The notes beneath the pieces were generated by a model, which worked only from the letters and a program-made list of their open reading frames with translations, was not told the origin of the DNA and did not search any database. A stretch of DNA of 64,000 nt from the NCBI GenBank assembly GCA_002394305.1, contig DGTM01000011.1, positions 60,778 to 124,777 on the forward strand. The letters are read 5' to 3'. Below, piece by piece: positions 16,402-61,453 of this stretch. Each line of letters opens with the position of its first letter. Position 1 is the first letter of the stretch. Position numbers and translations under genes: made by a program. This DNA comes from Prevotellaceae bacterium UBA4336. GTDB taxonomy: Bacteria > Bacteroidota > Bacteroidia > Bacteroidales > Bacteroidaceae.

Positions 16402-16520
16402 AGTATTTTTTGGCAAACGCTTTCTTGTTTGCAAAAAAAAGTGTTACTTTGTAGCGAAAATAACTAAATCAGGGGTTGCGGGCAACAGGTTTGCCTGCCA
16501 ATCCGCCAACAAGAAGCGAT

Positions 16521-19352: not shown

Positions 19353-19377
19353 CGCGAACAACTAACAACCTTCAACC

Positions 19378-37458: not shown

Positions 37459-38364
37459 TCAAATGGCATCTATCTCTTCGAGAGTCAGTCCTGTGTATCT
37501 TGCTATCAATTCTGCCGCCATACCGTCGTCCTTCATCTTCTGAGCCGTCTCAAGTTTTCCTTCAGCCCTTCCTTCAGCTCTTCCTTCAGCTCTTCCTTCA
37601 GCCCTTCCTTCAGCCCTTCCTTCAGCTCTTCCTTCCTTTTGTGCAGTGGAAATTACATCGTTCTGCACCATGATGGCATCCAGATGGCGGTCGTAGGAGA
37701 GTTGTTCCTCGCGCGGCATCTGCATGTACTGCAGCTGTCTGCGAGCCTCTTGCAGGCCGGGAGCCGTAGTGTCGTCCTTGATGTGGCCGGAGCGCAGGTA
37801 GTCGAGCCACTCCTCCAGCGGGGTCGTTGCCACCTTGTTGAACTCGTTCACGCGGATGAGGAAGTACTCGGGGAAGACCTGTTCGGGAGTCTTCATCTCG
37901 ATGATGTCCTTCTCCTTCGTCGTTATCTGGAGCGTGTCGCCGGTATGTACGCCGGTGAATGTGGTCTGCCCGTGGTAGAGGTAGTCGGCACCCTTGCCGA
38001 GGTCGAAGTAGAGGATACTGATGCTGTAGACTTTTTTCACCTTGTCGTACTTGTCACCGAGCTGTATGTGTTCGGTAATGGACTTCGCCACGCCGTAGAG
38101 GATGCGCTCCAGATAGTATAGTTCCCTTGTGAGCTGTATCTCCACGATGATGATTTCCCCTTTGGAGTTCTTTGCCTTCACGTCGACGCGGTTGAACTTG
38201 TCGTCGTAGGTGTCCTGGTTCCCTTCGCTCTCCAGAATCTCCTCGATGTGCACTTCCTCGTTCAGCAGCACGGTGATAAGCCCTTCCAGCACTCCGAAGT
38301 TGGCCTTGTTGCGGAGCATGCGCTTAGCTGCCCAGTCGAAGCGTACGTATTTGTCTTTTGCCAT
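37459..38364 (-). CDS. PD-(D/E)XK nuclease-family transposase-like protein (Rpn/YhgA-like)
   Basis: 301 aa. The sequence YVRFDWAAKRMLR...NRVDVKAKNSKGEIIIVEIQLTRELYYLERILYG fits the PDDEXK_2/Rpn pattern (D...E.Q core). No inverted repeats or integrase lie nearby. Confidence 0.65.
   Translation of the reverse strand: MAKDKYVRFDWAAKRMLRNKANFGVLEGLITVLLNEEVHIEEILESEGNQDTYDDKFNRVDVKAKNSKGEIIIVEIQLTRELYYLERILYGVAKSITEHIQLGDKYDKVKKVYSISILYFDLGKGADYLYHGQTTFTGVHTGDTLQITTKEKDIIEMKTPEQVFPEYFLIRVNEFNKVATTPLEEWLDYLRSGHIKDDTTAPGLQEARRQLQYMQMPREEQLSYDRHLDAIMVQNDVISTAQKEGRAEGRAEGRAEGRAEGRAEGRAEGKLETAQKMKDDGMAAELIARYTGLTLEEIDAI
37557..37636. repeat. 12-bp tandem repeat, about 6.6 copies (TTCCTTCAGC[CT]C), encoding (GRAE)x6 near the C-terminus of the Rpn-like protein
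   Basis: The protein reads KEGRAEGRAEGRAEGRAEGRAEGRAEGK. Confidence 0.9.
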
Positions 38365-38395: not shown

Positions 38396-38403
38396 CAAAG
38401 TTA
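38396..38403 (-). promoter_or_regulatory. -7 box (TAACTTTG) for the Rpn-like gene
   Basis: It lies 32 nt upstream of the ATG at 38364. Confidence 0.5.
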
Positions 38404-38610: not shown

Positions 38611-38649
38611 TACAAAAAAGGGGATGTGTCCGTTTCCCGACACATCCCC
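38611..38649 (-). terminator. Strong intrinsic terminator closing the cohesin/dockerin operon
   Basis: The minus strand reads ggggatgtgtc-gggaaacg-gacacatcccc (perfect 11-bp stem), followed by ttttttgta. It lies 21 nt after the stop of the 60-aa ORF. Confidence 0.8.
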
Positions 38650-38670
38650 TTGGCGTTTTCCGATGTCAGA

Positions 38671-38853
38671 TCAGAAGTCTATATCATCCCAGGAACCCCA
38701 GGAGTCTTCCTTCACGTCCGCATTCAGGTCGCCGTCTCCGTCGACACCTCCGAAGTCAATCTTTGGGTCATCGCTGAACACGCTGGAGGCGAGCATTGAT
38801 TCTACTGTAGCATCTTCAATGTTTATGGCAGGACATACATATATCTTTTTCAT
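38671..38853 (-). CDS. 60-aa highly acidic peptide with one EF-hand/dockerin-like Ca-loop pattern. Last ORF of the operon.
   Basis: The translation is MKKIYVCPAINIEDATVESMLASSVFSDDPKIDFGGVDGDGDLNADVKEDSWGSWDDIDF. DGDGDLNADVKE fits D-x-D-x-D-x-x-x-D-x-x-E. It starts 41 nt after the upstream stop, and the terminator follows directly. There is no signal peptide. Confidence 0.45.
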   Translation of the reverse strand: MKKIYVCPAINIEDATVESMLASSVFSDDPKIDFGGVDGDGDLNADVKEDSWGSWDDIDF

Positions 38854-38894
38854 AGCTTTTTCTGTAATTAAGAGGTTAAACTTCGAGATTGAGA

Positions 38895-40037
38895 TTATCT
38901 GATGACCTTCTTGCCATTCACGATGTTGATGCCATGCTGAGCCTTGCTCACGCGCTGGCCTGCGAGGTTGTAAATAGCTCCCTCGCCTTCGGAAAGGGCT
39001 GGGGTGAGGCTGTTGATGCCGGTTGCTTCGTCGTTGAAGAGGATGTTCACTTTCACCTCAGCCACGTCGTAGTAGCCGTCCAGCACGTAGTAGAGGTCGA
39101 AGTAGCCGCGGTAGCCCTTGATGGCTGAAGCGCCTGTCGAGTACCAGAACTTGTTGCCGCTCAGGAAAATGTTCTCCTCGGGCACCAGCGTTGCTGCGTA
39201 TGTGCCGCGGAAATAGCTGTACTTCCTTCTTTCGCCAACCTGTACTTCGGGCTCCTCTTCTGCTTCGATGCTGACGTTCTCGAACTCGGCCGACTCAACG
39301 TCTGCGCTCACCTTGATGAGCATGGGGGTATTGGCCTCGATGCCGTCAGCAGCATCAGCTGCGGTGAACTTCATGTTGATGTTGTCGTTATCCTCGTCCA
39401 CCTCGACGCCGCTGAAGGAGGCCAGCTCAACATCGTTGCCAAAGGCAGCCTTCACCTGTTCGCCAGTAGCAGCGAAGGGCAGACAGATTGTGCTCCATAC
39501 GTCTGCACTGATGGTGCGCTTCAGGGTGACGTTCACTTCGTCCTCGCTGGCTTCGGGAGCCTCGGTGTCATTCTCGTCGAGGACAACCGTGTGGCGGTCC
39601 ACTACGCTTACGACGAATGTTGCGTCCTCGGCATCAGCGTTGCCATCAGCACCTTCAAAGACGATGTCCGTCACGCTGACATAATAGTCTCCGACAGCCA
39701 CGTCAGCTCCTACCGTGAATTCTACCGTGAGGGTAGCCGACTCGAAAGTCTTGGCTGCGGCAGCAGCAACTTTCACCTTGCCTTCGTTCATGGTGCCGTA
39801 CTCCAGCGAACCGTTCCATCCCTCTATGGCACCGCCGGCCTCCATCGTGAAGCCCTCAGCGGGGAACTGCAGTGCCATCTGTATGCCGGTAAAGGCATCA
39901 GCGGGTGCAGAGAGGTTGAGAGTAGCTGTCACCTTCTCGCCGGGCAGAGCCTCGACGTCGGAGGCAGAGACAGTCTGTGCCATTGATGCTCCGCTTAGTC
40001 CGAAGAGCACAGACAAACTAAGAATTAACTTTTTCAT
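38895..40037 (-). CDS. Secreted protein: cohesin-like module, then a jelly-roll-like middle domain, then a short T9SS-type C-terminal tail
   Basis: 380 aa with the signal peptide MKKLILSLSVLFGLSGASMA. The cohesin-like segment is TVSASDVEALPGEKVTATLNLSAPADAFTGIQMALQFPAEGFTM... (about 39597-39974). The tail is GAIYNLAGQRVSKAQHGINIVNGKKVIR. Confidence 0.6.
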   Translation of the reverse strand: MKKLILSLSVLFGLSGASMAQTVSASDVEALPGEKVTATLNLSAPADAFTGIQMALQFPAEGFTMEAGGAIEGWNGSLEYGTMNEGKVKVAAAAAKTFESATLTVEFTVGADVAVGDYYVSVTDIVFEGADGNADAEDATFVVSVVDRHTVVLDENDTEAPEASEDEVNVTLKRTISADVWSTICLPFAATGEQVKAAFGNDVELASFSGVEVDEDNDNINMKFTAADAADGIEANTPMLIKVSADVESAEFENVSIEAEEEPEVQVGERRKYSYFRGTYAATLVPEENIFLSGNKFWYSTGASAIKGYRGYFDLYYVLDGYYDVAEVKVNILFNDEATGINSLTPALSEGEGAIYNLAGQRVSKAQHGINIVNGKKVIR

Positions 40038-40079
40038 GTCTTCTTATCTTAATTATTTAACTTCTGAAAGTTGATCTGT

Positions 40080-42200
40080 TTATTCCACGAGCTTCTTCAG
40101 GATAGCTGTAGCGTCTAAGGTGTTAATCTTGCCGTCACCGTCAACGTCGGCAGCTTTCTCTACGAAGTCCTCGGGAGTATTGCCTACGAGGTACATCAGG
40201 ATGTAGGAGGCGTCTACCGTGTTGATCTTGCCGTCGCCGTTCACGTCGCCTGGGATGATGGCATCAGCCTCGCGCTGAGCTTCCAGAGCGTCAGCTACGG
40301 GAGCAACCAGTTCGTCCACGGCAGCCTTGTTCTCGTCGAGCGTCTTCTCTTCGTCGTATTCAAGGGCATTGATAGCTTCTACGGCATCAGCGATGATGGC
40401 CTGCGAAGCCTCGCTGTCGCCTTCCTCTGCCATTGCCTCTACAGCAGCAGCCTGTTCAGCCACGTATGCTTCGAAGGCAGCCTTGTCGGCAGCGAGCTGA
40501 GCGGCAGCTACGTCAGCGAGCAGGGCCTCAATGCCGGCGGCGATAGCTTCGCCATTCTGCAGTGTGCTTTCTGCGGTCAGCTTCTCTGCTGCATAGGCGC
40601 CCTCCAGCTTGGCAATGGCATCACTGAGCATGTCTTCCAGGTCAGCGATGGTGTCATCAAACTGCGAAGCCACTTCCGGGTAGTCGTTCTTGATGGTGTT
40701 CTTGGCCTGTCTCAGGGCAGCACGCAGTTCGTCGTACTGTGCCTTCAAGGTCGTATAGGCTTCCTCGTTGGCAGCAGCCTTGGCAGCTTCTGCGTCGGCA
40801 GCACGCTGAGCGGTGAGAGCCTCTTGGGCGTTAGCGGCCACTGCGTCAACGGCAGCCTTGTTCTCGTCGAGAGACTTCTCTTCGTCGTACTCCAGAGCTT
40901 CGATGGCAGCCTTGGCGTCGGCAAGAATCTGCTGTGCAGCCTCGCTGTCGTCTTCCTCGGCCAGAGCTTCTACGGCAGCAGCCTGCTCTGCCAGATACTC
41001 AGCGAAGGCTTCCTTGTCGGCAGCCAGCTGTTCGGCAGCACGCTGTGCAGCCAGAGCCTCCTGAGCTGAAGCGGCAACTTCGTCAATGGCAGCCTTGTTC
41101 TCGTCGAGCGACTTCTCTTCGTCGTACTCCAGAGCTTCGATGTCAGCTACGGCATCAGCGATGATGGCCTGCGAAGCCTCGCTGTCGCCTTCCTCAGCCA
41201 GAGCCTCTAATGCAGCAGCCTGCTCAGCCTTGTACTCGTCGAAGGCAGCCCTGTCAGCAACAGAGGTGTTGGTCACCTTGATGGTAAGGGGGTCGCAGAG
41301 CTGAGACTTTCCTGTGGTGGTTGCCACGCGCAGGTCGGTAAGTGAAATCTCTGCTTCTTCGGCCAAGTCAGCAGTTGCCTTCACGATGAACGAGAAGATG
41401 ACGCCGTCGTTTTCGATAATCTTGGCATTCATGGAGGAACTCAGCACGAAGTTGATGGAACCATTATTATCCTCGAACTTAAACTGTGACTGCTTGGGAA
41501 TACGGTCGGAATAGATGAACCGTTCCTCGGACTCCTCTTCATCGGGCAGTACAATCTCCAGTCCTTCGGGCAAGGTGAGCGTACCCTGGAGGGCCGTAAG
41601 GTCCTGTACATGTACATTGGTCATTGTGACATCCACCTGATATTCCTGTCCCACGGACACCTCGATGCTCTCGGGAGCAGAGAACTTACAATCCAGCCCC
41701 AGCATTTTCACCTTGGCTGTGCATGTCTTGTTCTCGTTCAGCTTTGTACCATTGTCATCGACGATTTCGATGTCCTCAATGTTCAGAACCTCTTCTTTGT
41801 CGTCAAGGGTACCGGCTTCCACGCTGAAGGTGATGATAGCGCCTTCACCGGCAGCAATGGTGCCGTCGGTCTCGACAATCACCAGCTTGCCTGTTCTTTC
41901 ATATGCATCCTTGTCAGATGCCTGCACCATAGCGCCGCGGCCTTTGACGCGTGCCGTTTTGTTCACAGAGTTTTCTTTGTAGGTCAGTCCTTTCGGAAGG
42001 TCGACGGTCAGCTGCAGGGCAGTTACCGGTTGGTCGTTGGTGAGCAGCACAGCCACCTCCTTGGTTTCACCGCTTGCTATAGTGAAATCCTCCACAGAGA
42101 TTTCCACCTTGGCGGACGATGTCAGTGCCTGTGCCAGGAAAAGCATCAGCAGCAGACAGCTTTGCATCGTCCGTTTGCTTATATTTGTGATATTACTCAT
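40080..42200 (-). CDS. Secreted scaffold-like protein: two cohesin-like modules, three ~77-aa acidic helical repeats, and a canonical C-terminal dockerin
   Basis: The track start at 42275 is GTG and lies inside a hairpin. The ATG at 42200 gives MSNITNISKRTMQSCLLLMLFLAQALTSSA (alternatives at 42212 and 42170). The cohesin-like modules lie at about 41706-42110 and 41268-41690. The repeats lie at 41025-41258, 40794-41024 and 40263-40496. The dockerin GDVNGDGKINTVDASYILMYL...ADVDGDGKINTLDATAILKKL lies at 40083-40250. There is no T9SS tail. Confidence 0.65.
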   Translation of the reverse strand: MSNITNISKRTMQSCLLLMLFLAQALTSSAKVEISVEDFTIASGETKEVAVLLTNDQPVTALQLTVDLPKGLTYKENSVNKTARVKGRGAMVQASDKDAYERTGKLVIVETDGTIAAGEGAIITFSVEAGTLDDKEEVLNIEDIEIVDDNGTKLNENKTCTAKVKMLGLDCKFSAPESIEVSVGQEYQVDVTMTNVHVQDLTALQGTLTLPEGLEIVLPDEEESEERFIYSDRIPKQSQFKFEDNNGSINFVLSSSMNAKIIENDGVIFSFIVKATADLAEEAEISLTDLRVATTTGKSQLCDPLTIKVTNTSVADRAAFDEYKAEQAAALEALAEEGDSEASQAIIADAVADIEALEYDEEKSLDENKAAIDEVAASAQEALAAQRAAEQLAADKEAFAEYLAEQAAAVEALAEEDDSEAAQQILADAKAAIEALEYDEEKSLDENKAAVDAVAANAQEALTAQRAADAEAAKAAANEEAYTTLKAQYDELRAALRQAKNTIKNDYPEVASQFDDTIADLEDMLSDAIAKLEGAYAAEKLTAESTLQNGEAIAAGIEALLADVAAAQLAADKAAFEAYVAEQAAAVEAMAEEGDSEASQAIIADAVEAINALEYDEEKTLDENKAAVDELVAPVADALEAQREADAIIPGDVNGDGKINTVDASYILMYLVGNTPEDFVEKAADVDGDGKINTLDATAILKKLVE

Positions 42201-42238
42201 AACATTAAGCATTTGTTTTGTTTTGTGTAAGGTAAAAG

Positions 42239-42277
42239 GGGTGGCAGCCAGTGCCGTGCAGCACGAGGCTGCCACCC
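42239..42277 (-). terminator. Intercistronic stem-loop (perfect 11-bp stem) between the giant gene and the scaffold-like gene. It may be an attenuator or partial terminator.
   Basis: The minus strand reads gggtggcagcc-tcgtgctgcacggcact-ggctgccaccc, followed by cttttacc. It lies 39 nt after the giant's stop. No TAnnTTTG box is visible between it and the next start. Confidence 0.5.
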
Positions 42278-42315
42278 GGGAAACTGAGATGAGAAAAACT
42301 AATGTTTTGCTGGGA

Positions 42316-45300
42316 TTACTTCAATACCTTCTTCGTTGTGCCGTCAGCATTCTGGATGATGTTCACACCCTTCTTCATGCCGTTCATCATGCGTCCGCCC
42401 AGGTCATAGACCTTCTGCTTGAGCGACTGCATGGCAGCCATGATGTCGATGCCGGTAGCCTCGCCGCCGTTGCCGATAGCGAATGCATGAGTATTGGCAT
42501 AGATGTCGGAGAAGAGGATGTTCAGCATCTCTACGCTGCCGCCCTGGAAGTTGGCATCGGTCTGAACGTCGATGTAGAGCACAGCGCCTTCGTTTCCGCT
42601 GAAGGTCTCGCCCTTGATGGACGAAGCCAGCAGGCGGATGCTGCCGTCCTCCTGTGCGTGGCTATAGAGCTTGTGGCTCTGTCCGGCGCGGTCGCTCAGG
42701 CTCTGGCCTACGATGGTCATACCCTCGGGCAGAAGCACGTCGAGCTGGAAGGCGGTGTAGTCCTCTGTGTTCTGCAGGTTGATGGCGTAGCGCTGTACGC
42801 CCTGCTGCATCGGAGTGATGTCCATCGACATACTCTCGCTCTGAGAGCGGAAGCCCTTCACGGCAGCATAGCCGTCTGCCCATTCCTTGTTCAGGATGTA
42901 GTTGACGATGGCAGTCAGGTCGCCCACCTCGATAGCCGAGTTCTGGTTGATGTCGAGGTTTGCGAAGAGGTTGGTCCCTTCAGTTGGCATCGCGTTCTTA
43001 CCGAGAATCATGTTCAATACTATCTGGTAGTCGGCCACGGTCACACCGTTTTCACCATTGGCATCGCCGAGCAGACCCATGTTGTCAACAGCATCGTTGA
43101 GATCCGCAATCTCATTCTTGATGTTTCCAACGGTCTTCATCTGGCTTGCGTAGTCAGCATCGCTGGTGATGCCCCATGTCCTTACGCCATTCTCATTATA
43201 ATAATAATGGTTGGTGTGAGAGGCTGTGATGGCAATGCCGAGGTTGGTAATTTCACCGTTAATGGCAGTATACTGTTCCAGCATCCCATCCCACAGTGTC
43301 CTGGAGTACTTCTGAGCATGCTCATGACTGAATTGGTCGAGGGCCTTGTCGAGAAGCTCGCCAAGATTGTCCTTCTGTGCTGTCAACTCATAGTATGCAG
43401 AGTCGTCTAGATAACCCTGGATGGTTGTCTGGATGGTTGTCTTAGTAGTGTTGACAAAGTAAGTGTTCAAGTTGCTTGAAGCGTTCAATTCAACATTGCT
43501 GTTAGCATTATTGAGGTTGTTGTTTGCAACGTTGATGTTATACTGAACACCGCCATTGAGATAACCATACCAGTAGGACTCAATCCTGGATATGTAGGTG
43601 TTGTTAGCATACTCGTATGCATAGACCTTATCTTTGGCTGCATCCACAAGGTCTTGCAGCCCTTGTAGCTCATCGCTGAGTCTAGCGTAAGCTGCCGTGT
43701 TGGCATCGAACTGAGCCTGACGATCGTTAATCTCTTTGACAACAGGATCAAGGGCAGTCTTGATGTTCGTGATTTGCTCCTGATACTGCTTCTTGAAGAA
43801 TGCAATGTTAGGTTCGTTCTTGACCTCTTCCTTCAGTCCAGCAATTTGGGTGCTAATCTCTTCAATCCACTGCTCGAGCGTCTTGCCTTTGAACATCCGC
43901 TGCTTAACCCAATCGGCCTTGCCTTCCAGCGTGGCTGAAGTTGCCAGAGTGTCAAGCTGCGTCTGGAAGTTGGCGAGTACTTCGGCATTGGCTGTGCTTT
44001 CATTTGCCTGCAGCAGTTCGCTCTCCAGGTCGGCGATCTTGTCTTGCAGGGCAATCAGGTTCTCTGTGGCGGCAACAATCTCGTCGAACTGGATGCCGTC
44101 GGCGGGATCGTCGAGGTCGGCGATGGCAGCATTCGTAAGTGCTGTCTCATACTCATCAATCTTGGCCTTGAAAGCGTTTGCCGTGTCGTCGAGACCCTTG
44201 GCAGCAACGTATGCGTTGTACTGGTTCTTCAGCTCGGCGATGTCAGCATTCAGACCAGTCTTCTCTGTGTTAAAGGCTTTGGTCAGAGTTTCCTCGATAT
44301 TTGTGCTGAGTGTTGTTACGCGGTTCAGGAGTGCTGTCTTGTTTGCAACAGCAGAACCATGTGTCTTGTAGTAATCAGCATCGCTATTGATGCTTGCGAG
44401 TTCTAACTCGTATGTAGCGAACGATGTTGCATACTTATAGGGAGCTGCTGCATCCATAGCTTCTTTCAGCTTCTCACCCACGGGTGCAATCTTTGCTGTC
44501 ATTTCATTGTAAGCAGCAGTGTTAGCTTCGTCACTGGCAAATGCTTTCTCAACATACGTCTTGATTTCGTTGGCCTGAGTTATGAAGTAACTGAGGTAAT
44601 TGTCGACGTATTCGTTGTGATTTGAGAAATTGTAAGTACCGGGACGATTCTTAATATACGTTACGTACCAGTATTCATCCTCAAGATTGTTCAACTGTTC
44701 ACTAACACCATAAACATCATCTGCAATGCTTACAGATTCGAGGTAAGTCTTCACTTCGGTGTGCTTGTCTTCAGCATCAGCAATCCACAGGTTGATGTCC
44801 TTCACTGCGGCAGCATTCTTGTCTGCGGTCAGCATAGCGTCGATGTGCTCAAGGCCGTTAATAGCGGCTTCCACATCGGAGAGTGTCATAGACTGTACAC
44901 CGGCATCGCCATTTGCAATCAGGTCTGTCACATCCTTGAAGGCATCTGTCTTGGCACCGTCCTTGTAGCTGTTGATTGCAGCCTCGGCTAGAGTTACCTT
45001 GGTGGCGAACCCTTCCTTCTTCGGAGTCCAATAATCTCCAATTGCCGTCTTGACATTCTCCTTGAACGTGTTGAGTTTGTTTGTGATATTTGTAACGATT
45101 GTAGCGGCTCTGGTGTTGAAGCCAGATACATCGAATACGTCAGGACTCATGGTGTTAGCGTAGGCTTCGCCTTCTTCGTTTCTCAACGTTTCAATATCGG
45201 TCGGACAGTTGTAGAGTGCAACGTCGAGATCAGCTGCAGCATCCGTGATGAGGCCTTCAATCTCTGCATTGGTAGAGCTGTACTTGGCACGATCCTGAAC

Positions 45301-48300
45301 GGCGTCCAGATAAGCTTGGTTAGCCAAGCCGATGGCGGTATTGAAGGATTTGTGAGCAGCTTCGTTGTCGGCAGCTATGGCTTCGTCGTAACCTTCGCTC
45401 CATTGTGCCTTCACATCGTTGATGCTGGCTTCGATGGCTGCGAAGTCCTTGGCCTCTGCTACAGACTTGCCAATCAGGTAGTTTGCCTCTACTGCTTCGG
45501 TTGCCTCCGTGAGCGTTACCTGGATAGCATCGAGCTGGTCGGTCCACTCTTGAACCTTAGAGCTCTTGTCCCTTGCAGCAATCTCGGTGAAGGTGTTGTT
45601 CCACAGGGTCTGTGCGTGCTGGTAGGCAGCCTTCTGCTCGTCGTACTTCGCCTTGTTGGCCTTGCTATCGGTGTAAATGGCTTTCACCTTATTGATGAGC
45701 TCGGTAATCTCTGCCTCGAATCTGCTCTTTGTGCTTACAGCTGTGCGTGCATTCAAGGAAGCCTGCATGTTAGTGAGGATGTCGGCCTTGTCATTGATGT
45801 ACTGAGTCTTGAGGCCCTGATAGTAGGGCATTGCACCTTCGCCCATGACGGCTGCGACAATCGTGATAGAATCGGGCCGCAGATTATTATCCCAGTTGCC
45901 CTTCAGTGCCATGTAAGCCTTCCAGTTGTCGCTTTCTGCGGCAGCCTCAGCCTTCAGGGCGTTGATGGCAGCAGTGATAGCGGAGATAGAGTAGGTCTTC
46001 TTATTATCACCTTCACCCACCGTGATGCTGTTGTCCTTCCATTCGTCGAACAGTTTTTCGACAGCTGCGGAGGCAGTGATAGCGTTGCTCATGGCTGCGA
46101 TGTCGGCATCGATGGCAGCCTTCTTTGCGGTGTAGGTCTTGTCTGCTTCCAATCCAGTCTCGAATACCTTCCAGTTTGCAGGGTCTGTCTTCTTGGCTAT
46201 ATCGTCTTCACTTTCGGCCTTGGCATTCGTTACGTTGTCCAGGTTCTTCAGTGTGTTTAGCTCAGCGGTCTGCAGGTTCGAGACGGCCGTGTTGGCAGCG
46301 GTCAGGGTTGCTGCATTGTTCTCAACAGCGGTCTTGATGCCGGGAGCATCATTTACTTGTTTCTGGAATCTTTCATTCAGAGCGGTGTACTGGTTGGTGT
46401 AGCCGGGAGTCTCCGTGCTGGCGTTGTTATACTTGCCAAGCTGGTCGTTCTCGTGGTAGGTTACCTTCTTCACTTCGAATTTGACACCTTCCTTGTTGGC
46501 GCTGACTTTCAGTGTGCCGTCGGTAACGAATACACCTTCCAGTGTGACTTCGCCAGTTGCGGTACCAGCTGCTTCTGTGGCGTTGGCTTTAATCTTGCCT
46601 CCTTCTGCTGCTGCAGTAATATCTACAACAACGACGTATACGCCGTTAGCCAGGTTGCTGTATTCGTTGCCAGCCACCGTGATTTCGACAGGTTTCCATG
46701 CTTTAGGCTCAACTTCACCGTTGGCGGTCTTGAGGGTGCCGAGTTTGGTTTCAATATCGTTTACCTCTGTGGTTACGCTGCCGCCAGCCTTACCACGAAG
46801 ACCGAGTGTGGAATCGTCCTCACCAACCTTATAGGTAGTCTTGAATGTGCCAATACTCGTCTGCAGGCCATTGATGCTGGCCGCAAGCGTTGTCTTTGCA
46901 TTGGTGTTTGCTGCGACTTTAGCCTTGACTGCGTCTGCAGCGGCTACGAGTGCAGCCTGCTCTGCCTTGAGGCTTGTGATTCTCTCACCCAGCGCCTGGA
47001 TTGTTTCGGGGGCATTTTCGGCATTGACATCGATGGCCTCCCAATCGCTGTTGATCTGGGCTAATTTGCTATCGATGGTTGCCTTTGCGTTGGCAAAGAA
47101 ATAATAATCGACACCAAGTACGGCATCGGTTGCTTCTAAATCATCGATGCTCCTTTGGATAGAGTCTCGGTCAGCTGTGAGCTGATCCTTGTCGTACTGG
47201 TTCTGGTTTGCCTTTGCGCCGGCAATCAGGTCTGTTACATCCTGAATGAAATTGTCGTCGGCAGCAACAGCCTGCATGGCAGCCCAATGCTCTGCGCCCC
47301 TCTTCTCCTGAGCGGCAGCGATGGCCTTCTTGATTTCGTTGATACGCTTCTGCAGGAGGTCGAGCTTTGTTTCATAGTCGTAATCTGCGGCAGTGTAGAT
47401 GTCAAGACCCTTTATCTTTTCGCGTACCTTATTAAGAGTATCCTGATATTCTGCGATGTCATCCTGACGCTTGTCGTAGTTCTCAACAGCCAGGGGAGCG
47501 TTGGTCTTGTAGTCGTTGATGGCAGCGGTGATAGGTGCAGTCTTGGCTGCCAAGCCGTTGTTGTAGTTTTGGGCAGTACCCGTGCCGTCAGCCTTATAGG
47601 CAGCAGCTGCATCTGTGGTAAGCTTGTTGATGGCATCCTGCTGTGTTTTGAGGTAGTCTGCATAGTAGTCGGCGGGCTTGTATTCTCCGTCCTTGGAGTT
47701 CTTTTTGTTTACATCCGTCACGGCATCGTCCTTTGCCTTCTGTACGACAGCGATGGCCGCTGTGGTAGCTTTGTTGGCATTGAACTCTGCGTTGGCTGTC
47801 GATACCTTGCCTGCCAATGTGGTGATTTTGCTATTGGCATTATTATAGTCTGTTGTAAAGTCGGCGTTGTCGTTGAGTGACAATTGCTCAGCTTTGTTGT
47901 AGACAGCTTCTACCTTTGCTTTGACTTTATTGATGGCTTCGCTTGCTGCAGCACGATCAGTTGCAAAGGCAGCAGAGATGGCATCATTGTTGTCTGCGTA
48001 GGTCACAGCACTGAGGGCGCCCTCCAAAGCTGTTACCTTGTCAGCCAGAGCCTGATACTTGTCCTTGTTGTTCTGAGCCTGTGTCTTGTAGTCGTCGACG
48101 ATAGTGTTCAAGTCTGTCTCTGTGGGAATCTTGCCCAAGTTCGCTGTCTTGTCCGCTACTGCAGTGCCTGCCTCGTAGGAAGCATAGCTGGCAGATGTTG
48201 CTTCGGTTATCTTCTTGTTGATTTCATCATTCAGCTTAGCCTTGGCTCCGTTGAGGAGGTAACCTGCAGCGTCGACGAGGACACCTTCCAGTTCGGTAAC

Positions 48301-49020
48301 GGCGGCATTGTACTTAGCCTTGATTGCTGTGATTTCTGCGTTGACGTCGCTGTATGCCTTCTCGTTCTGGTTGCTGGCGATAGTGGCGGCAAGGTTGGCA
48401 ATGTCATCATCGTAAGTAGTCTTCTTGCTGTCGAGGTTGTAGAGCTTTTTTTCCTTATAGGTAAGGTACTTCTCCTCGATTTCAGTGTTAATTTTCCCAA
48501 CCAGTTTGTCAACAGCAGTCGCATCGTCCGTGCTATTGTATGAGTAGACAGGGATATTCACTGTCTTCAGGTCATTTGCACGGCCAACGAGTGTTGTCTT
48601 GGCATTGTTAAAATCGAAGTCGAGGCTCAGCACGGGAGCGGTGAACGAGTATGCGGAACCAGCTTCGCCGGGATCACTGCTTGTGAAGGAGAGCTTGACA
48701 TCCTTCGTTTCGGTGAGTGTGAACTCGAGCTCTACAGCTTGTGCTCCACTGGCATTTGTTATCTCCTTCTTTGTGCCGCCAATTTCCACCGTGACATTGT
48801 AGACCTTTGTGGTGAGCGAGCATGTAAGTTTATAGTTGCCTGGCAATAACTGCGGAATGGTGTATTCTGCAGCTGAGCCGTTGGAGGAAATTGTTCCGTC
48901 GACAACCGTCAGACCCGTACCTTCCCAATTGGTGAGTTGGGCAGCCTGGACAACAGCTGCTTCAGCTCCGAGGGGCAGAGCAGCAAGTCCCATCATTGAG
49001 TAAAGAACTTTTTGATTCAT
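42316..49020 (-). CDS. Giant (2,234-aa) secreted protein: N-terminal beta domain, ~1,900 aa of Ala/Asn/Lys/Asp/Thr-rich helical (coiled-coil-like) sequence with one internal beta domain, a dockerin-like segment, a cohesin-like module, and a short T9SS-type tail
   Basis: It has an ATG start and the signal peptide MNQKVLYSMMGLAALPLGAEA. The dockerin-like GDANGENGVTVADYQIVLNMIL...ANLDINQNSAIEVGDLTAIVNYIL lies at 42889-43068. The cohesin-like MDITPMQQGVQRYAINLQNTEDYTAFQLDVLLPEGMTIV... lies at about 42454-42834. The tail is KVYDLGGRMMNGMKKGVNIIQNADGTTKKVLK. Confidence 0.7.
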   Translation of the reverse strand: MNQKVLYSMMGLAALPLGAEAAVVQAAQLTNWEGTGLTVVDGTISSNGSAAEYTIPQLLPGNYKLTCSLTTKVYNVTVEIGGTKKEITNASGAQAVELEFTLTETKDVKLSFTSSDPGEAGSAYSFTAPVLSLDFDFNNAKTTLVGRANDLKTVNIPVYSYNSTDDATAVDKLVGKINTEIEEKYLTYKEKKLYNLDSKKTTYDDDIANLAATIASNQNEKAYSDVNAEITAIKAKYNAAVTELEGVLVDAAGYLLNGAKAKLNDEINKKITEATSASYASYEAGTAVADKTANLGKIPTETDLNTIVDDYKTQAQNNKDKYQALADKVTALEGALSAVTYADNNDAISAAFATDRAAASEAINKVKAKVEAVYNKAEQLSLNDNADFTTDYNNANSKITTLAGKVSTANAEFNANKATTAAIAVVQKAKDDAVTDVNKKNSKDGEYKPADYYADYLKTQQDAINKLTTDAAAAYKADGTGTAQNYNNGLAAKTAPITAAINDYKTNAPLAVENYDKRQDDIAEYQDTLNKVREKIKGLDIYTAADYDYETKLDLLQKRINEIKKAIAAAQEKRGAEHWAAMQAVAADDNFIQDVTDLIAGAKANQNQYDKDQLTADRDSIQRSIDDLEATDAVLGVDYYFFANAKATIDSKLAQINSDWEAIDVNAENAPETIQALGERITSLKAEQAALVAAADAVKAKVAANTNAKTTLAASINGLQTSIGTFKTTYKVGEDDSTLGLRGKAGGSVTTEVNDIETKLGTLKTANGEVEPKAWKPVEITVAGNEYSNLANGVYVVVVDITAAAEGGKIKANATEAAGTATGEVTLEGVFVTDGTLKVSANKEGVKFEVKKVTYHENDQLGKYNNASTETPGYTNQYTALNERFQKQVNDAPGIKTAVENNAATLTAANTAVSNLQTAELNTLKNLDNVTNAKAESEDDIAKKTDPANWKVFETGLEADKTYTAKKAAIDADIAAMSNAITASAAVEKLFDEWKDNSITVGEGDNKKTYSISAITAAINALKAEAAAESDNWKAYMALKGNWDNNLRPDSITIVAAVMGEGAMPYYQGLKTQYINDKADILTNMQASLNARTAVSTKSRFEAEITELINKVKAIYTDSKANKAKYDEQKAAYQHAQTLWNNTFTEIAARDKSSKVQEWTDQLDAIQVTLTEATEAVEANYLIGKSVAEAKDFAAIEASINDVKAQWSEGYDEAIAADNEAAHKSFNTAIGLANQAYLDAVQDRAKYSSTNAEIEGLITDAAADLDVALYNCPTDIETLRNEEGEAYANTMSPDVFDVSGFNTRAATIVTNITNKLNTFKENVKTAIGDYWTPKKEGFATKVTLAEAAINSYKDGAKTDAFKDVTDLIANGDAGVQSMTLSDVEAAINGLEHIDAMLTADKNAAAVKDINLWIADAEDKHTEVKTYLESVSIADDVYGVSEQLNNLEDEYWYVTYIKNRPGTYNFSNHNEYVDNYLSYFITQANEIKTYVEKAFASDEANTAAYNEMTAKIAPVGEKLKEAMDAAAPYKYATSFATYELELASINSDADYYKTHGSAVANKTALLNRVTTLSTNIEETLTKAFNTEKTGLNADIAELKNQYNAYVAAKGLDDTANAFKAKIDEYETALTNAAIADLDDPADGIQFDEIVAATENLIALQDKIADLESELLQANESTANAEVLANFQTQLDTLATSATLEGKADWVKQRMFKGKTLEQWIEEISTQIAGLKEEVKNEPNIAFFKKQYQEQITNIKTALDPVVKEINDRQAQFDANTAAYARLSDELQGLQDLVDAAKDKVYAYEYANNTYISRIESYWYGYLNGGVQYNINVANNNLNNANSNVELNASSNLNTYFVNTTKTTIQTTIQGYLDDSAYYELTAQKDNLGELLDKALDQFSHEHAQKYSRTLWDGMLEQYTAINGEITNLGIAITASHTNHYYYNENGVRTWGITSDADYASQMKTVGNIKNEIADLNDAVDNMGLLGDANGENGVTVADYQIVLNMILGKNAMPTEGTNLFANLDINQNSAIEVGDLTAIVNYILNKEWADGYAAVKGFRSQSESMSMDITPMQQGVQRYAINLQNTEDYTAFQLDVLLPEGMTIVGQSLSDRAGQSHKLYSHAQEDGSIRLLASSIKGETFSGNEGAVLYIDVQTDANFQGGSVEMLNILFSDIYANTHAFAIGNGGEATGIDIMAAMQSLKQKVYDLGGRMMNGMKKGVNIIQNADGTTKKVLK

Positions 49021-49152
49021 AGTAAGTTTCTTTAAAGGTTAGTATTATTTGTTTATTCTCTTTTGTCGAGTTTGTCTGTTTCGTTCTCTTACATTATTAT
49101 TATATATAGTGTGCAGTGCATAATCTGCCCATAATTTCTGTAGTATTCTTGG

Positions 49153-49160
49153 CAAAGGTA
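49153..49160 (-). promoter_or_regulatory. -7 box (TACCTTTG) for the giant-protein operon
   Basis: The reverse complement of caaaggta lies 133 nt upstream of the ATG at 49020, in the 247-bp gap after the kinase gene. Confidence 0.55.
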
Positions 49161-49220
49161 CGAGTTTTTGATAATACGTCGTGTCGGGGAAAAGGCTTTG
49201 TTTCTGAACCCTTCGGTTTT

Positions 49221-49252
49221 GGGGTACGAATTGCCGGGGACGGCGTACGAGT
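49221..49252 (-). promoter_or_regulatory. Two 11-bp direct repeats (GG[GC]GTACGA[AG]T) 21 bp apart, a candidate LytTR operator. A third copy overlaps the -7 box (49155-49165).
   Basis: The copies are ggggtacgaat (49221-49231), ggcgtacgagt (49242-49252) and aaggtacgagt (49155-49165). Spacings are 21 and 66 bp. They lie upstream of the operon promoter, next to a LytTR gene. Confidence 0.3.
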
Positions 49253-49266
49253 GCAAAAGTGGGTCC

Positions 49267-50088
49267 TCAGGCTTTGTTTCTGAGGCTGTTGGCCTGTGTT
49301 TTGAGCGGAAGGACGAGGGAGACGGCGTAGGCTTCGGGGGTGTTGTGAATGTCGAGCGAATAGTTGAGGCCATAGAGTGTGTCGAGGCGCTGCCGGACGT
49401 CGTTGATGCCCAGGCCGTCGGTGCGTCCGACGGGGCTGTCGGCGTTTGTGCCGCGGCAGAGGAACTGTAGCCGTTCGTCCTGGACCGACGCCTTTATCTC
49501 GATGGCAGCACTATGGTCCGCTCCGGTGCTGCGGCTGACGACGTCCTCGATGATGGCGAAGAGCACAAGCGGCGGTATCTGCCGGTCGGGGACGACGGGG
49601 AGTTCGAGTTCCACGCTGAATGTGTCGCCGAAGCGCAGCTTGAGGAGTGCGGTGTAGTGCCGGATGAAGTCGAGCTCGTAGTAGAGGTGGACGTAGGGCT
49701 GGTTGGCTTCGACGAGGACATAGTGCATCACCTTCGAGAACTCCCACGTGGCGTGCTTGGCTTTCTGCGGTGCGATGTCGGTCAGGGCGGCGTGTATGTG
49801 CCGGAGGGTGCTGGTGGAGATGCGCTCGATGTTGTGCAGCCGTTTGTTGTTGACGGGTATTTCCGGTGTGTCCTTTCTGTTTGTGCAGGCCAGGAACACC
49901 ATGACGAGGAGCACCAGTGCCAGGACGATGAATTCGATGAGGTCGGGTGCGGTAATGGTGCCACTGGCGGTGTGCATGTGAATCTTCAGCACGAAGGCGG
50001 CAAAGAGCAGGCCCCATGCTGTCAGGAAAAGCAGGTTCTTCAGTCTGAAAAGCTTCATCTGTGTCGGTTTGGCTTGGTTCGTAGACAT
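49267..50088 (-). CDS. LytS/YehU-type (His_kinase plus HATPase) membrane sensor kinase, short and divergent
   Basis: The preferred start is MSTNQAKPTQMKLFRL... An in-frame ATG at 50190 would overlap the LytTR gene by 23 nt. It has two TM segments. YELDFIRHYTALLKLRFGDTF...IPPLVLFAIIEDVV and TDGLGINDVRQRLDTLYG fit PF06580-type kinases. The usual NPHFLFN H-box is replaced by STSTLRHIHAAL. Confidence 0.6.
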   Translation of the reverse strand: MSTNQAKPTQMKLFRLKNLLFLTAWGLLFAAFVLKIHMHTASGTITAPDLIEFIVLALVLLVMVFLACTNRKDTPEIPVNNKRLHNIERISTSTLRHIHAALTDIAPQKAKHATWEFSKVMHYVLVEANQPYVHLYYELDFIRHYTALLKLRFGDTFSVELELPVVPDRQIPPLVLFAIIEDVVSRSTGADHSAAIEIKASVQDERLQFLCRGTNADSPVGRTDGLGINDVRQRLDTLYGLNYSLDIHNTPEAYAVSLVLPLKTQANSLRNKA

Positions 50089-50167
50089 TTTGAGGGCAAA
50101 GCTACGCCTTTTTTGCGAGACGCAGCTCTTTGCCTTGCCGGATGTCTCCGAAAGGTGTGGTTTGTCG

Positions 50168-50557
50168 TTACGAAATGTTGCGCACGGCATACGAATCCTC
50201 AGCGAGCCTTTCGGAGATTTGCTCCTTGAGGTTTTTGAGGAGGAACTTCGAGACGGGGATTGACGTTGGCGGAGTCGTCTTGAAGATGATTTTCTGCAGT
50301 TTCATGCTGAGCACCTCGACGTGTGTGGTGTTGACCAACAGGCTTCGCCCCACGTGTACAAAGGGGTTGCGGATGTTCCTCTGCGAAGTCATCTCGGCGA
50401 TTTGCGACTCGAGGAAGGAGATGTTCATCAGTTCGCTTTTCACCCGCCCGTCGGTGTAGACGAAGTCGGTGTAGTTGTGGCTTGCCCTGAGGTAGAGCAC
50501 TTCAGAGAGGTTGATGATGCGGAGCTCATCGCGCGACTCAATAAATATCTTCATCAT
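50168..50557 (-). CDS. Stand-alone LytTR DNA-binding domain protein (no receiver domain)
   Basis: From the ATG at 50557 the protein reads MMKIFIESRDELRIINLSEVLYLRASHNYTDFVYTDGRVKSELMNISFLE...FVHVGRSLLVNTTHV, a LytTR pattern. The 73 extra residues in the track ORF are not receiver-like. Confidence 0.65.
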   Translation of the reverse strand: MMKIFIESRDELRIINLSEVLYLRASHNYTDFVYTDGRVKSELMNISFLESQIAEMTSQRNIRNPFVHVGRSLLVNTTHVEVLSMKLQKIIFKTTPPTSIPVSKFLLKNLKEQISERLAEDSYAVRNIS

Positions 50558-50984
50558 AAGCGGGACAATGTTTTCTTTGACTTGCTGTGGACAGATACAA
50601 AAAAAGCGTGGGTCTCTTCTGTTCCAGTTGCCCGTTCCGCTGCAAAAGGCTCTCGCATTGCCCATCAAGTCTGAACGAGCAACGCCGAAGCCCACGCGAA
50701 AGATATGCCAACACATCAACAGCAACGCACGTACCTTCTGTAGGGAGAAAGGTACTGCGTGCGGAGATATCAACATATTTCCACATAGGTCATCTACCGT
50801 TGCTTTGTCTCGGACTTGATTGTGAATTTGCGAGATTCTTTGCAGCCTAAGAACAAAGCGCCTGTGTAAACGCCTTTCTGTATATGTGCCCCACCGTCCC
50901 GGCTTCTGCTGACAGGCGTCATCGAGGCTTCGGGGCCGGATGGTTTGGCCTGTTCTTGCTTCCGCAGGAATGGTGACGACGTTG

Positions 50985-50992
50985 CAAAGTTA
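50985..50992 (-). promoter_or_regulatory. -7 box (TAACTTTG) upstream of the LytTR/kinase pair
   Basis: It matches TAnnTTTG. It implies a long leader of about 420 nt to the ATG at 50557. Confidence 0.35.
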
Positions 50993-51117
50993 GAAAATTT
51001 ATGCGAATTGGCAAAGGAAAAGCTGAATATTTGTTGTCACGCACACTTGTTTGGCATGTCAGTACGTGCGAAGTTGGCTATTTTTCCCCGTGGCACGCCG
51101 CTGATGCCGGAAAACAG

Positions 51118-51153
51118 GAATCCCCGCCGCCCTGTGAAGGACAGCGGGGATTC
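51118..51153 (-). terminator. Intrinsic terminator after the GH85 gene
   Basis: The minus strand reads gaatccccgc-tgtccttcacagggcg-gcggggattc, followed by ctgttttcc. Confidence 0.65.
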
Positions 51154-51184
51154 TTCGGGGGAAGTCGGCAAACTGCCGCTTCGC

Positions 51185-60907: not shown

Positions 60908-60937
60908 ATAGCTAACATGATTATATGTAATTTCTTG

Positions 60938-60945
60938 CAAAGTTA
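60938..60945 (-). promoter_or_regulatory. -7 box (TAACTTTG) for the SusC/SusD/GH85 locus
   Basis: It lies 31 nt upstream of the ATG at 60907. Confidence 0.5.
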
Positions 60946-61453
60946 CACAATCTTTTCGACTTAATGAAATGAAATAGCATAATTTTAGCAAAGGTGAATA
61001 CCGACGAGCCTCATACAGAATGACAGAAAGAAAGAAAACGAGGCGTTTTACTTACTATCTGACTTCTCATAAACTCACGAGATGCGCAGAAAAAGCCTTC
61101 GGACATGGTTTTGGTCGTTTTTCCGAAGAAAGTCGCTCAAATCAAAAGTACGCTGAAACACAGAGCATTACAAATCGATTTCTCCGACAAAAATCGTCAT
61201 ATTGTAAACTCCACTTAACAAAATCGAGCGTTTTTCTGCGTTTTTTGACCAAATTTGCCATGGAATTTTAGTGAACGCGACACAAGGCTTTTGTAAACGA
61301 AGCACGTCTTGTTGGTCAATTAAGCGTGCGTCGTTTGCAAACGTCCCACGTCAAGCGACCCAAAGCCCCCTGTTTTGCCCCCTTTTGGCCTTGTGCATGA
61401 AGTGACAAAAAGCAGGCAAAACAACAGGAAACGGCAGCAAATTGTTATTTTCG

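Follow-up and report, generated by a model that had tools for sequence, protein, structure and literature searches.

A candidate cohesin-dockerin surface assembly with type IX secretion signals in a Prevotella-like rumen bacterium

A four-gene operon for a putative surface assembly

The window analyzed here, a 64,000-nt stretch of contig DGTM01000011.1 (assembly GCA_002394305.1) from Prevotellaceae bacterium UBA4336, contains a predicted operon that encodes a giant protein of 2,234 aa, a 706-aa protein, a 380-aa protein and a 60-aa protein. The products of this operon probably form a surface assembly of non-enzymatic proteins on a Prevotella-like rumen bacterium, anchored through a type IX secretion system (T9SS) and linked by cohesin-dockerin contacts. 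The giant is composed, in order, of a signal peptide, an N-terminal beta domain, a rod, an inserted beta domain, a second rod, a dockerin-like module, a cohesin-like module and a short C-terminal domain (CTD). The 706-aa protein consists of a signal peptide, two cohesin-like modules, a helical repeat spacer and a type I dockerin, and the 380-aa protein of a signal peptide, a cohesin-like module, a linker, a central beta domain and a short CTD. An initial annotation, made by eye from the translated open reading frames (ORFs), had proposed a scheme of this kind, and each of its testable domain-level claims was supported by at least one independent test. Domain scans of the four proteins found no enzyme domain, as had been stated there.

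Cohesin-like and dockerin-like modules

Four paralogous beta modules had been noticed at the outset and read as cohesins: two in the 706-aa protein (modules 1 and 2), one in the 380-aa protein (module 3) and one in the giant (module 4). As determined by hhalign, the four are mutually homologous (probability 94-98.7%, E 1e-7 to 1e-16), with module 1 aligning to module 2 at 98.7% (E 1.5e-16) and to modules 3 and 4 at 95-97%, and module 4 aligning to modules 1-3 at 95-97%. The AlphaFold2 model of the 380-aa protein has a pLDDT of 82.9 overall and of ~90 over module 3, and in a Foldseek search with this module cohesins fill the top ranks (E 7e-9 to 1e-6, target TM 0.6-0.73), the best structures being 6kgc_A (E 7e-9, TM 0.69) and 1aoh (TM 0.73). 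The model of the last 260 residues of the giant has a mean pLDDT of 54.8, and the beta module (pLDDT 70-86) is the part of it that was interpreted; the top match of this module is the non-cellulosomal cohesin 2jh2 of Clostridium perfringens (E 1e-6, TM 0.66), and the five best matches are all cohesins (including 2jh2, 2w1n and 2o4e); 2xdh and 2vo8 are also among the top matches, and more cohesins come later, interspersed with chitin-binding domains. The structure models cover modules 3 and 4, to which modules 1 and 2 are tied by hhalign (94-97%). Among homologues, Pfam Cohesin (PF00963) was detected in 8 of 23 members of the two-cohesin family (best E 8.9e-9) and in 13 of 30 aligned members of the 380-aa family (best E 3.9e-6), and the profile of the latter family matches the Ruminococcus flavefaciens cohesin 5n5p (E 1e-3). 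The similarity to the cohesin jelly-roll that had been put forward as a check was found, and from these profile comparisons and predicted models we conclude that all four are likely to be divergent cohesin-fold modules.

The dockerin at the end of the 706-aa protein, originally described as textbook and placed at 40083-40250, is recognized by Pfam Dockerin_1 (PF00404, cut-off 22.9 bits) with 46.7 bits (E 3.6e-12) over model positions 1-56 of 57, and it also matches solved dockerins (4fl4_A, E 5.8e-6). Its two segments, which are almost symmetrical, are visible in the DNA as a 63-nt direct repeat, 99 nt apart. The corresponding segment of the giant is a divergent dockerin-like module, recognized by Dockerin_1 in two orthologues (19.9 and 16.4 bits, E 8e-4 and 0.011); fragments homologous to it carry precomputed PF00404 matches, and its family profile matches the dockerin 4dh2_B (E 0.011). 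The first loop of the giant reads DANGENGVTVAD here, as opposed to the canonical DANEDGKVNVLD in orthologues (GENG replaces EDGK).

Exchange of dockerin and CTD among related loci

When 185,579 species genomes were scanned with the C terminus of the giant, 42 loci were obtained, none of them from a culturable Prevotella with the cassette. In ~25 of these, counted at species level, a giant of 1,934-2,731 aa with collinear N- and C-terminal parts is followed directly by the two-cohesin protein, so that the comparison of synteny across Prevotellaceae that had been recommended indicates a cassette conserved in ~25 species-level metagenome-assembled genomes (MAGs). Most of the genomes with the conserved cassette are gut and rumen MAGs of Prevotella, Prevotellaceae, Paraprevotella and Muribaculaceae. 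Exact-protein look-ups also found the order LytTR protein, giant, two-cohesin protein, 380-aa protein and small ORF in other assemblies.

The second protein of the cassette ends in one of two ways. It carries a C-terminal dockerin in the window and in loci L001, L004, L007, L008, L009, L014 and L016, and a short CTD in 11 loci (L010, L013, L015, L017-L020, L023, L025, L029 and L031). A gene for a protein with a cohesin and a short CTD follows in 8/8 of the dockerin-type loci and in 0/11 of the CTD-type loci. The protein in question is reduced in L016 to 208 aa, comprising a signal peptide, a cohesin and a CTD, and has several cohesins in L014. This pattern is as expected if a dockerin together with a separate cohesin-CTD anchor may substitute for a direct CTD.

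The sequences of the two presumed partners also vary together. Between L009 and the window, the rod, cohesin and dockerin of the giant and the two cohesins of the second protein are 54-64% identical, as compared with 40% for the dockerin of the second protein and 23% for the cohesin of the neighboring anchor, and the dockerin and the anchor cohesin thus appear to have been replaced together in L009. Across seven loci, the identity of the dockerin tracks the identity of the anchor cohesin best (Spearman 0.94). The proposal that one protein is recruited by its dockerin is upheld, as far as comparison of sequences can do so, by this co-variation, by the interchange of dockerin and short CTD and by the occurrence of the anchor gene solely with the dockerin form. 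The dockerin of the giant and the two cohesins of its neighbor would most likely form the other pair, because both are kept in all lineages; this is a weaker kind of evidence.

In three Prevotella MAGs (L022, L024 and L026), three to four tandem genes for proteins of ~800-2,700 aa match the profile of the dockerin-cohesin-CTD C terminus of the giant, which suggests local expansion into a fibril family. In L017 (CAVKAH010000004.1) the full cassette lies in a bin labelled Oscillospiraceae; since all other matches are from Bacteroidales, a binning error is likelier than a transfer.

Short CTDs and the type IX secretion system

The initial annotation had described one tail shared by the giant, the 380-aa protein and the GH85 enzyme of the window, and exactly these three ORFs of the window have it. 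The common order of motifs is T/GI, Y-x-x-G-(R/Q/K), G-x-N-I and a basic end. Motif B reads VYDLGGR in the giant, IYNLAGQR in the 380-aa protein and IYTPDGRK in the GH85 enzyme, motif D reads GVNII, GINIV and GINII, and the basic ends are KKVLK, KKVIR and RKVMLK, respectively; the GH85 tail is a 48-aa version with D/GI at the putative cleavage site. In Prevotella intermedia, Ye et al. (2025, PMC11969387) predicted 48 short CTDs of 43-55 residues, characterized by a PT/GI cleavage motif with Ile conserved at +2, a motif B of Y..G plus a basic residue, a motif D of GxY, or GxN in a subgroup, followed by Ile, and a basic motif E. Cleavage sites were determined for five of these short CTDs, and cargo proteins with short and with long CTDs were found to be glycosylated at the mature C terminus (PMC11969387). 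The tails of the window have the C-terminal position, the lengths (41, 45 and 48 aa), the cleavage motif and the motifs B, D and E of Prevotella short CTDs; this assignment is a direct reading of motifs against the published description and not a model score. One cleavage seen in P. intermedia, on a long CTD, took place at the same T/GINS that the 380-aa protein has (PMC11969387).

Solved structures provide a further link. The profile of the giant tail matches the C terminus of 8bbl_A (E 6e-4) and the tail of the 380-aa protein matches the C termini of 4kca_A (E 6e-6) and 7jvi_A, all three structures being rumen or gut enzymes that end in the same kind of tail. The N termini of the giant and the 380-aa protein are signal-peptide-like as judged by eye, and cleavage of the latter is predicted before a Gln. 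The window also encodes a homologue of PorZ, a component of the T9SS attachment complex, and the genome therefore has a T9SS. Taking motif reading and PorZ together, predicted T9SS targeting of the tails is well supported. The PorZ homologue itself has a long canonical CTD, and the co-occurrence of long and short CTDs in one genome has been reported so far only for P. intermedia.

The GH85 enzyme, an endo-beta-N-acetylglucosaminidase of 1,418 aa (51185-55441, minus strand) with F5/8 type C and PKD-like domains in addition to its short CTD, is encoded in a SusC/SusD locus (SusD 55692-57587, SusC 57617-60991). The presence of a short CTD on an enzyme of such a polysaccharide utilization locus would imply that this surface enzyme is T9SS-anchored and not a lipoprotein.

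The giant protein

Both rods of the giant are amphipathic, with a hydrophobic periodicity of 3.5-3.67 residues (z 5-9.5 overall) and Pro/Gly-free runs mostly of 25-70 residues. In rod 1 the 3.5-3.67-residue periodicity has a z of ~6, with 6.4 at 3.5 residues, and the 2.33 (7/3) harmonic a z of 5.7, and Pro/Gly-free runs do not exceed 70 residues; in rod 2 the 3.5-residue periodicity has a z of 9.5 and the longest such run is 114 residues. The rods could be a segmented coiled coil or, equally, a chain of helical hairpins or bundles. Three points of the original description of this protein needed correction. The term "coiled-coil" does not hold as stated, the rod being amphipathic-helical but segmented; the helical part amounts to about 1,760 aa, not ~1,900 aa, because the giant also contains two extra beta domains; and "low-complexity" does not apply, as no DNA repeats were found in the gene and every 100-residue bin along the whole length is 32-76% identical to orthologues. 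Most bins of rod 2 fall at 36-70%.

Few parts of the giant are less conserved than the N-terminal beta domain (35-44% identity to orthologues), and the inserted beta domain lies in a poorly conserved stretch (32-35% for residues 801-900). Neither has a match among Pfam, NCBIfam or PDB sequences. As read from its sequence, a C-terminally anchored giant with a variable N-terminal domain at the far end would have the architecture of a fibrillar adhesin. Weak matches to SMC and KIF9 had left a cytoplasmic SMC-like protein or a phage tape-measure protein as candidate identities; both were ruled out by the signal peptide, the CTD and the cohesin and dockerin modules.

Proposed assembly and alternative readings

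In the assembly that we infer, every binding event, the choice of partners, display at the surface and a role in adhesion are read from sequences. The three large proteins would enter the periplasm through Sec signal peptides, and short CTDs (41-45 residues) on the giant and the 380-aa protein would direct these two through the T9SS. There, the CTD would be cut at T/GI by the sortase PorU, which would join the new C terminus to a surface glycolipid. On the cell, the giant would have its cohesin and dockerin at the base, with the ~1,760-residue rod pointing outwards and the variable N-terminal beta domain as a distal tip, in the manner of a fibrillar adhesin. The 706-aa protein, which was correctly described at first as having two cohesin-like modules, a dockerin and no tail (its length is now 706 aa from the ATG), would be held by the cohesin of the 380-aa anchor through its dockerin and would contribute two more cohesins, next to a repeat spacer whose length varies, with the 79-aa repeat in 0 to 3 copies across homologues. 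These cohesins would most likely receive the dockerin of the giant, which would cross-link the fibrils at their bases or multiply those bases.

A number of results weigh against this reading. Pfam Cohesin, with a curated cut-off of 24.1 bits, matches module 2 alone in the window and does so under that cut-off (18.2 bits, E 0.003); modules 1, 3 and 4 have no match to PF00963, and DUF11 weakly matches 11 of 23 members of the two-cohesin family. The dockerin of the giant, a claim that stands for the orthologues, is sub-threshold in this copy (12.6 bits, E 0.16, over the full model length), and AlphaFold2 confidence is low over the dockerin and CTD parts of the giant. The standard T9SS models TIGR04183 and PF18962 gave no matches to whole proteins or isolated tails, and of 30 members of the 380-aa family only two reach E 0.019, under the cut-off. 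The tails had been called a T9SS sorting signal, and this claim survives through their fit to the validated Prevotella short CTD and the PorZ homologue, not through the standard models; the failure of those models is not counted as a refutation, since the short-CTD class was defined with custom models: for P. intermedia, Ye et al. used short-CTD and long-CTD models of their own making in place of the standard ones (PMC11969387). The dockerin-type loci form one related group, and the 8-versus-11 co-occurrence is therefore not 19 independent events. The organism is known solely as a MAG. For the 706-aa protein, which lacks a CTD, a lipobox or any other known signal for passage across the outer membrane, a position at the surface requires an unproven step: either it is carried out bound to its cohesin partner from the periplasm or it is not at the surface. 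The model is weakest at this point. That the 706-aa protein might be a lipoprotein was ruled out, since its only Cys stands ahead of the hydrophobic core and lacks conservation.

The anchored cohesins, those of the 380-aa family and perhaps the two of the 706-aa protein, could also be mainly a docking platform for dockerin-bearing glycoside hydrolases (GHs) and other proteins encoded elsewhere in the genome, a Gram-negative counterpart of the cellulosome of which the giant is only one client. This reading overlaps with the preferred one, and we regard it as possible but doubtful. The large size of the 380-aa family (more than 1,000 matches) would fit it, as would the other clients that the anchor gene adjoins (a BspA-type leucine-rich repeat (LRR) protein with a dockerin-like end and a Flg_new-cohesin protein), the dockerins reported on GH, carbohydrate-binding module and DUF proteins of rumen Prevotella, with a role "not defined yet" (PMC7480376), and a camel-rumen Bacteroidetes bin with 11 dockerins and 0 cohesins by hidden Markov model (HMM) search (PMC6071333). 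On the other hand, no gene for a dockerin-bearing enzyme lies in the operon or the orthologous cassettes, and the co-variation of the anchor cohesin with the neighboring dockerin argues for a dedicated local partner. Scanned enzymes of the window, from families GH85, GH66, GH97, GH2 and GH78, showed no match to a dockerin. The operon is not a cellulosome, though by analogy it would work like the anchoring part of one.

It is unlikely that the three proteins are independent of one another, with modules that do not pair, the giant and the 380-aa protein being separate T9SS adhesins and the 706-aa protein being periplasmic or vesicle-borne with its dockerin as a calcium-binding stabilizer. Four cohesin-like and two dockerin-like modules in three adjacent genes speak against this, as do the strict occurrence of the cohesin-CTD gene with the dockerin form, and never with the CTD form, and the joint replacement of dockerin and cohesin in L009; in its favor are the sub-threshold Pfam Cohesin scores of the window modules, the lack of an outer-membrane export signal in the 706-aa protein, and the wide occurrence, outside cellulosomes, of cohesin- and dockerin-like modules with no demonstrated partner (Peer et al. 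2009, as cited in PMC4035507). We likewise consider it improbable that the giant is mainly a spacer or coat, in which a lawn of rods cross-linked at the base would be protective or distance-keeping, for example against phage, protozoa or host factors. A long, conserved and non-repetitive rod, cross-linking modules at the anchored end and a tip without a recognizable ligand-binding family in Pfam and PDB sequence searches would all suit such a function, whereas the tip and the inserted beta domain are among the least conserved parts, as expected for sites exposed to ligands or to immunity.

Relation to known systems

In the cellulosome of Ruminococcus flavefaciens, the sortase-attached single-cohesin protein ScaE holds the dockerin of ScaB. 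The anchoring end of this cellulosome appears to be the closest working analogue of the T9SS-anchored assembly preferred here: in both, a small single-cohesin protein would be fixed covalently to the envelope by sortase-type transpeptidation, and a multi-cohesin adaptor would be held through its own C-terminal dockerin, both features being predicted for the operon. Cohesin structures of R. flavefaciens (5n5p and 5lxv) are among the matches of the 380-aa protein or its family. The host here is a diderm, however, the anchor consists of a T9SS short CTD, PorU and a glycolipid instead of LPXTG linkage to peptidoglycan, and there are no enzymes, the client being a 2,234-aa helical rod that is itself anchored. 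The C. perfringens cohesins of GH84C/NagJ (2jh2, 2o4e, 2w1n and 2ozn) are the best structural matches of the giant's module and weak matches in sequence, and represent, like the pairs proposed here, the use of cohesin and dockerin outside of cellulose degradation. They differ in that they join secreted enzymes of a Gram-positive pathogen, without T9SS anchoring, a structural rod or an operon-encoded anchor. Streptococcal M proteins and staphylococcal Ebh are fibrillar adhesins with an alpha-helical stalk. They share with the giant a long helical stalk, a C-terminal covalent anchor (predicted in the case of the giant) and a variable N-terminal tip, but are Gram-positive, sortase-anchored and often repetitive, in contrast to a segmented rod without DNA repeats that has a cohesin and a dockerin at its base and would use the T9SS.

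The short-CTD cargo of P. intermedia resembles the proteins of the window in the length of the signal (40-55 aa), in the four motifs including the GxN motif D and the Ile at +2, and in the presence of long and short CTDs in one genome, PorZ having the long one here. That cargo is made up of LRR proteins, proteases, beta-helix proteins and fibronectin type III/choice-of-anchor adhesins, its description lists no cohesin or dockerin (PMC11969387), and its signal is experimentally validated, the signals of the window being predicted. In rumen metagenomes, that is, in the same kind of organism and habitat, dockerins of Prevotella and Bacteroides and a few Bacteroidaceae cohesins have been reported (PMC4035507, 2014; PMC6487960, 2016; PMC6071333, 2018; PMC7480376, 2020). 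These were isolated modules found by HMM, with no operon, anchor, partner or link to the T9SS, and the role of the dockerins was left undefined, with no cellulosome producer known in these families (PMC4035507, PMC7480376). HMM censuses of rumen Bacteroidota recorded dockerins but almost no cohesins (PMC6071333), the cohesins being missed because they are too divergent for the Pfam cut-off. No described T9SS-cohesin-dockerin system was found in the open-access literature.

Dockerins and a few cohesins have thus been on record in rumen Bacteroidota since 2014, and this locus makes their role testable. It offers a putative wiring diagram, from the dockerin of the adaptor to the cohesin of a small anchor, and from there to the fixation of that anchor by a T9SS short CTD. 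If confirmed, the assembly would extend cohesin-dockerin architecture to the diderm outer membrane and tie it to a second sortase-like anchoring system, would add long helical fibrils of a new type to the surface structures of a lineage that is dominant in gut and rumen, and would make new orthogonal cohesin-dockerin pairs available for display on the surface of Bacteroidota; it would also raise the question of how a CTD-less protein crosses the outer membrane. More tentatively, and with some doubt on our part, the 380-aa family may be the missing general T9SS-fixed cohesin anchor of gut and rumen Prevotellaceae, with CTD-less dockerin proteins binding its cohesin in the periplasm and riding the T9SS. 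Such a general anchor, if true, would explain the orphan dockerins on Prevotellaceae enzymes and surface proteins, and pairing in the periplasm would make of the dockerin a transferable tag for secretion and anchoring that is evolutionarily interchangeable with the CTD.

The 380-aa and 60-aa protein families

Every named homologue of the 380-aa protein is annotated as hypothetical, and the family numbers more than 1,000. Its best conserved part, above the cohesin, is the central domain, which is modelled at pLDDT 75-97 and has no Pfam, NCBIfam or PDB sequence match. The same WSTICLPF domain is also found behind Flg_new (Listeria-Bacteroides) repeats, which replace the cohesin, in proteins of 574-644 aa (P0128-P0149). 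Elsewhere, genes of the 380-aa anchor type have other upstream partners (L005 9222-9953; L006 4924-8454 and 8501-9994), one being the BspA-type LRR protein, whose dockerin-like end matches Dockerin_1 with E 0.006, and another being the Flg_new protein, with a Pfam-significant cohesin (25.8 bits; L006). In view of these different partners, the anchor may serve different clients.

The 60-aa protein is conserved and acidic, lacks an evident signal peptide and belongs to no known family in domain scans. A gene of its type follows directly on the 380-aa-family gene in every locus inspected, even behind LRR or Flg_new partners, and its consensus reads MKKxYIxPxI...E.LLAVS..S.D..IGYGGVD..G.L. A single-sequence search yielded seven stand-alone homologues of 58-71 aa and no informative fusion. 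The conserved 60-aa gene and the LytTR regulator gene upstream of the giant (Table 1) belong to the locus.

Transcription signals, regulators and genome context

The layout first described, with four co-oriented minus-strand ORFs between one -7 box and one terminator, was confirmed. Spacings of 42 nt and 41 nt separate the last three ORFs, and 115 nt lie between the giant gene and the ATG of the second gene, a start that is favored because the N terminus is conserved among homologues. The terminator is a strong one, its stem counting 13 pairs instead of the 11 bp at 38620-38649 given before, and its hairpin starts 20 nt past the last stop codon of the operon. The predicted -7 box, TACCTTTG, likewise stood up to scrutiny as the sole minus-strand TAnnTTTG in the 246-nt gap (49021-49266) upstream of the giant gene, and no minus-strand copy was found inside the operon. 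The motif is enriched in the whole window (27 copies against 12.9 expected, a number reached in 0/100 shuffles), and several copies stand ahead of genes and tRNAs. From this placement we infer that TACCTTTG may be a working promoter element and that the four genes are probably transcribed as one unit. A sigma-70 promoter scan was disregarded, as the sigma-70 model is not applicable to Bacteroidota, and Rfam and tRNA scans of the operon gave no matches.

Upstream of the operon lies a candidate regulator pair. A LytTR protein of ~120 aa is encoded in the same orientation as the giant in 13 related loci (including L001 313-669, L007-L013, L016 and L020), and the stand-alone gene precedes the giant by 150-570 nt in 11 related loci and by 1.1-1.9 kb in two others; in the window, the histidine kinase gene stands between the two. 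The LytTR protein is a candidate for a dedicated regulator of the operon.

Table 1. Coordinates of the operon, its encoded modules and associated features (positions refer to the window unless a locus is named)
Feature	Position	Strand	Description
Giant gene	42316-49020	minus	ORF, 2,234 aa
N-terminal beta domain	48610-48957	minus	Residues 22-137 of giant; composition
Helical rod 1	46705-48609	minus	Residues 138-772; hydrophobic periodicity
Inserted Gly/Val/Thr-rich beta domain	46450-46704	minus	Residues 773-857; composition
Helical rod 2	43078-46449	minus	Residues 858-1981; hydrophobic periodicity
Divergent dockerin-like module of giant	42886-43077	minus	Residues 1982-2045; loops DANGENGVTVAD and DINQNSAIEVGD, helix after each
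Cohesin-like module 4	42454-42840	minus	Residues 2061-2189 of giant; Foldseek, hhalign
Short CTD of giant	42319-42453	minus	...EAT/GIDIMAAMQSLKQKVYDLGGRMMNGMKKGVNIIQNADGTTKKVLK, 45 aa from predicted T/GI cleavage site
Second gene	40080-42200	minus	706 aa from ATG; ORF from GTG is 40080-42275, 731 aa
Cohesin-like module 1	41694-42110	minus	Residues 31-169 of 706-aa protein; hhalign
Cohesin-like module 2	41259-41693	minus	Residues 170-314 of 706-aa protein; Pfam, hhalign
Ala/Glu-rich helical spacer	40263-41258	minus	Three copies of 79-aa (237-nt) repeat
Type I dockerin of 706-aa protein	40083-40259	minus	DVNGDGKINTVD and DVDGDGKINTLD, helix after each
Third gene	38895-40037	minus	ORF, 380 aa
Cohesin-like module 3	39585-39977	minus	Residues 21-151 of 380-aa protein; AlphaFold2 and Foldseek
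Central beta-rich domain	39021-39536	minus	Residues 168-339 of 380-aa protein; motif WSTICLPF
Short CTD of 380-aa protein	38898-39020	minus	...EAT/GINSLTPALSEGEGAIYNLAGQRVSKAQHGINIVNGKKVIR, 41 aa from T/GI
Fourth gene	38671-38853	minus	ORF, 60 aa
Intrinsic terminator	38618-38651	minus	13-pair stem (7 G-C), 8-nt loop, then TTTTTG
Putative Bacteroides-type -7 promoter box	49153-49160	minus	TACCTTTG, 133 nt upstream of giant ATG
Candidate regulator pair	49267-50776	minus	Upstream of and co-oriented with operon; LytTR protein and histidine kinase
LytTR DNA-binding protein	50168-50776	minus	ORF; 202-aa call probably too long, probably ~129 aa
PF06580 histidine kinase	49267-50190	minus	Between LytTR gene and giant
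PorZ homologue	5486-7783	minus	PF21544, E 3.4e-43; long canonical CTD
60-aa-type gene, L001	10850-11005		
60-aa-type gene, L004	9692-9862		
60-aa-type gene, L005	11214-11393		
60-aa-type gene, L006	11224-11409		

All four operon proteins are present verbatim in public assemblies. A MAG under the name "Bacteroidaceae bacterium" has near-identical copies, annotated there as hypothetical, and a roe-deer rumen MAG (isolate RGIG4863) contains a copy of the giant C terminus that is 95% identical. The gene content of the window is typical of glycan-degrading Bacteroidales, with the SusC/SusD/GH85 locus and GH66, GH97, GH2 and GH78 enzymes. Directly 3' of the operon terminator is a gene of the PD-(D/E)XK transposase family (37459-38364, minus strand; PF12784, E 3e-24), with a TAnnTTTG box (38396-38403) just ahead of its start. 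Two long antisense ORFs were also noted, one of 965 aa (16464-19361) opposite the GH78 rhamnosidase gene, for which the scan gave no family matches, and one of 1,481 aa (50945-55390) opposite the GH85 gene; both look like artefacts of composition.

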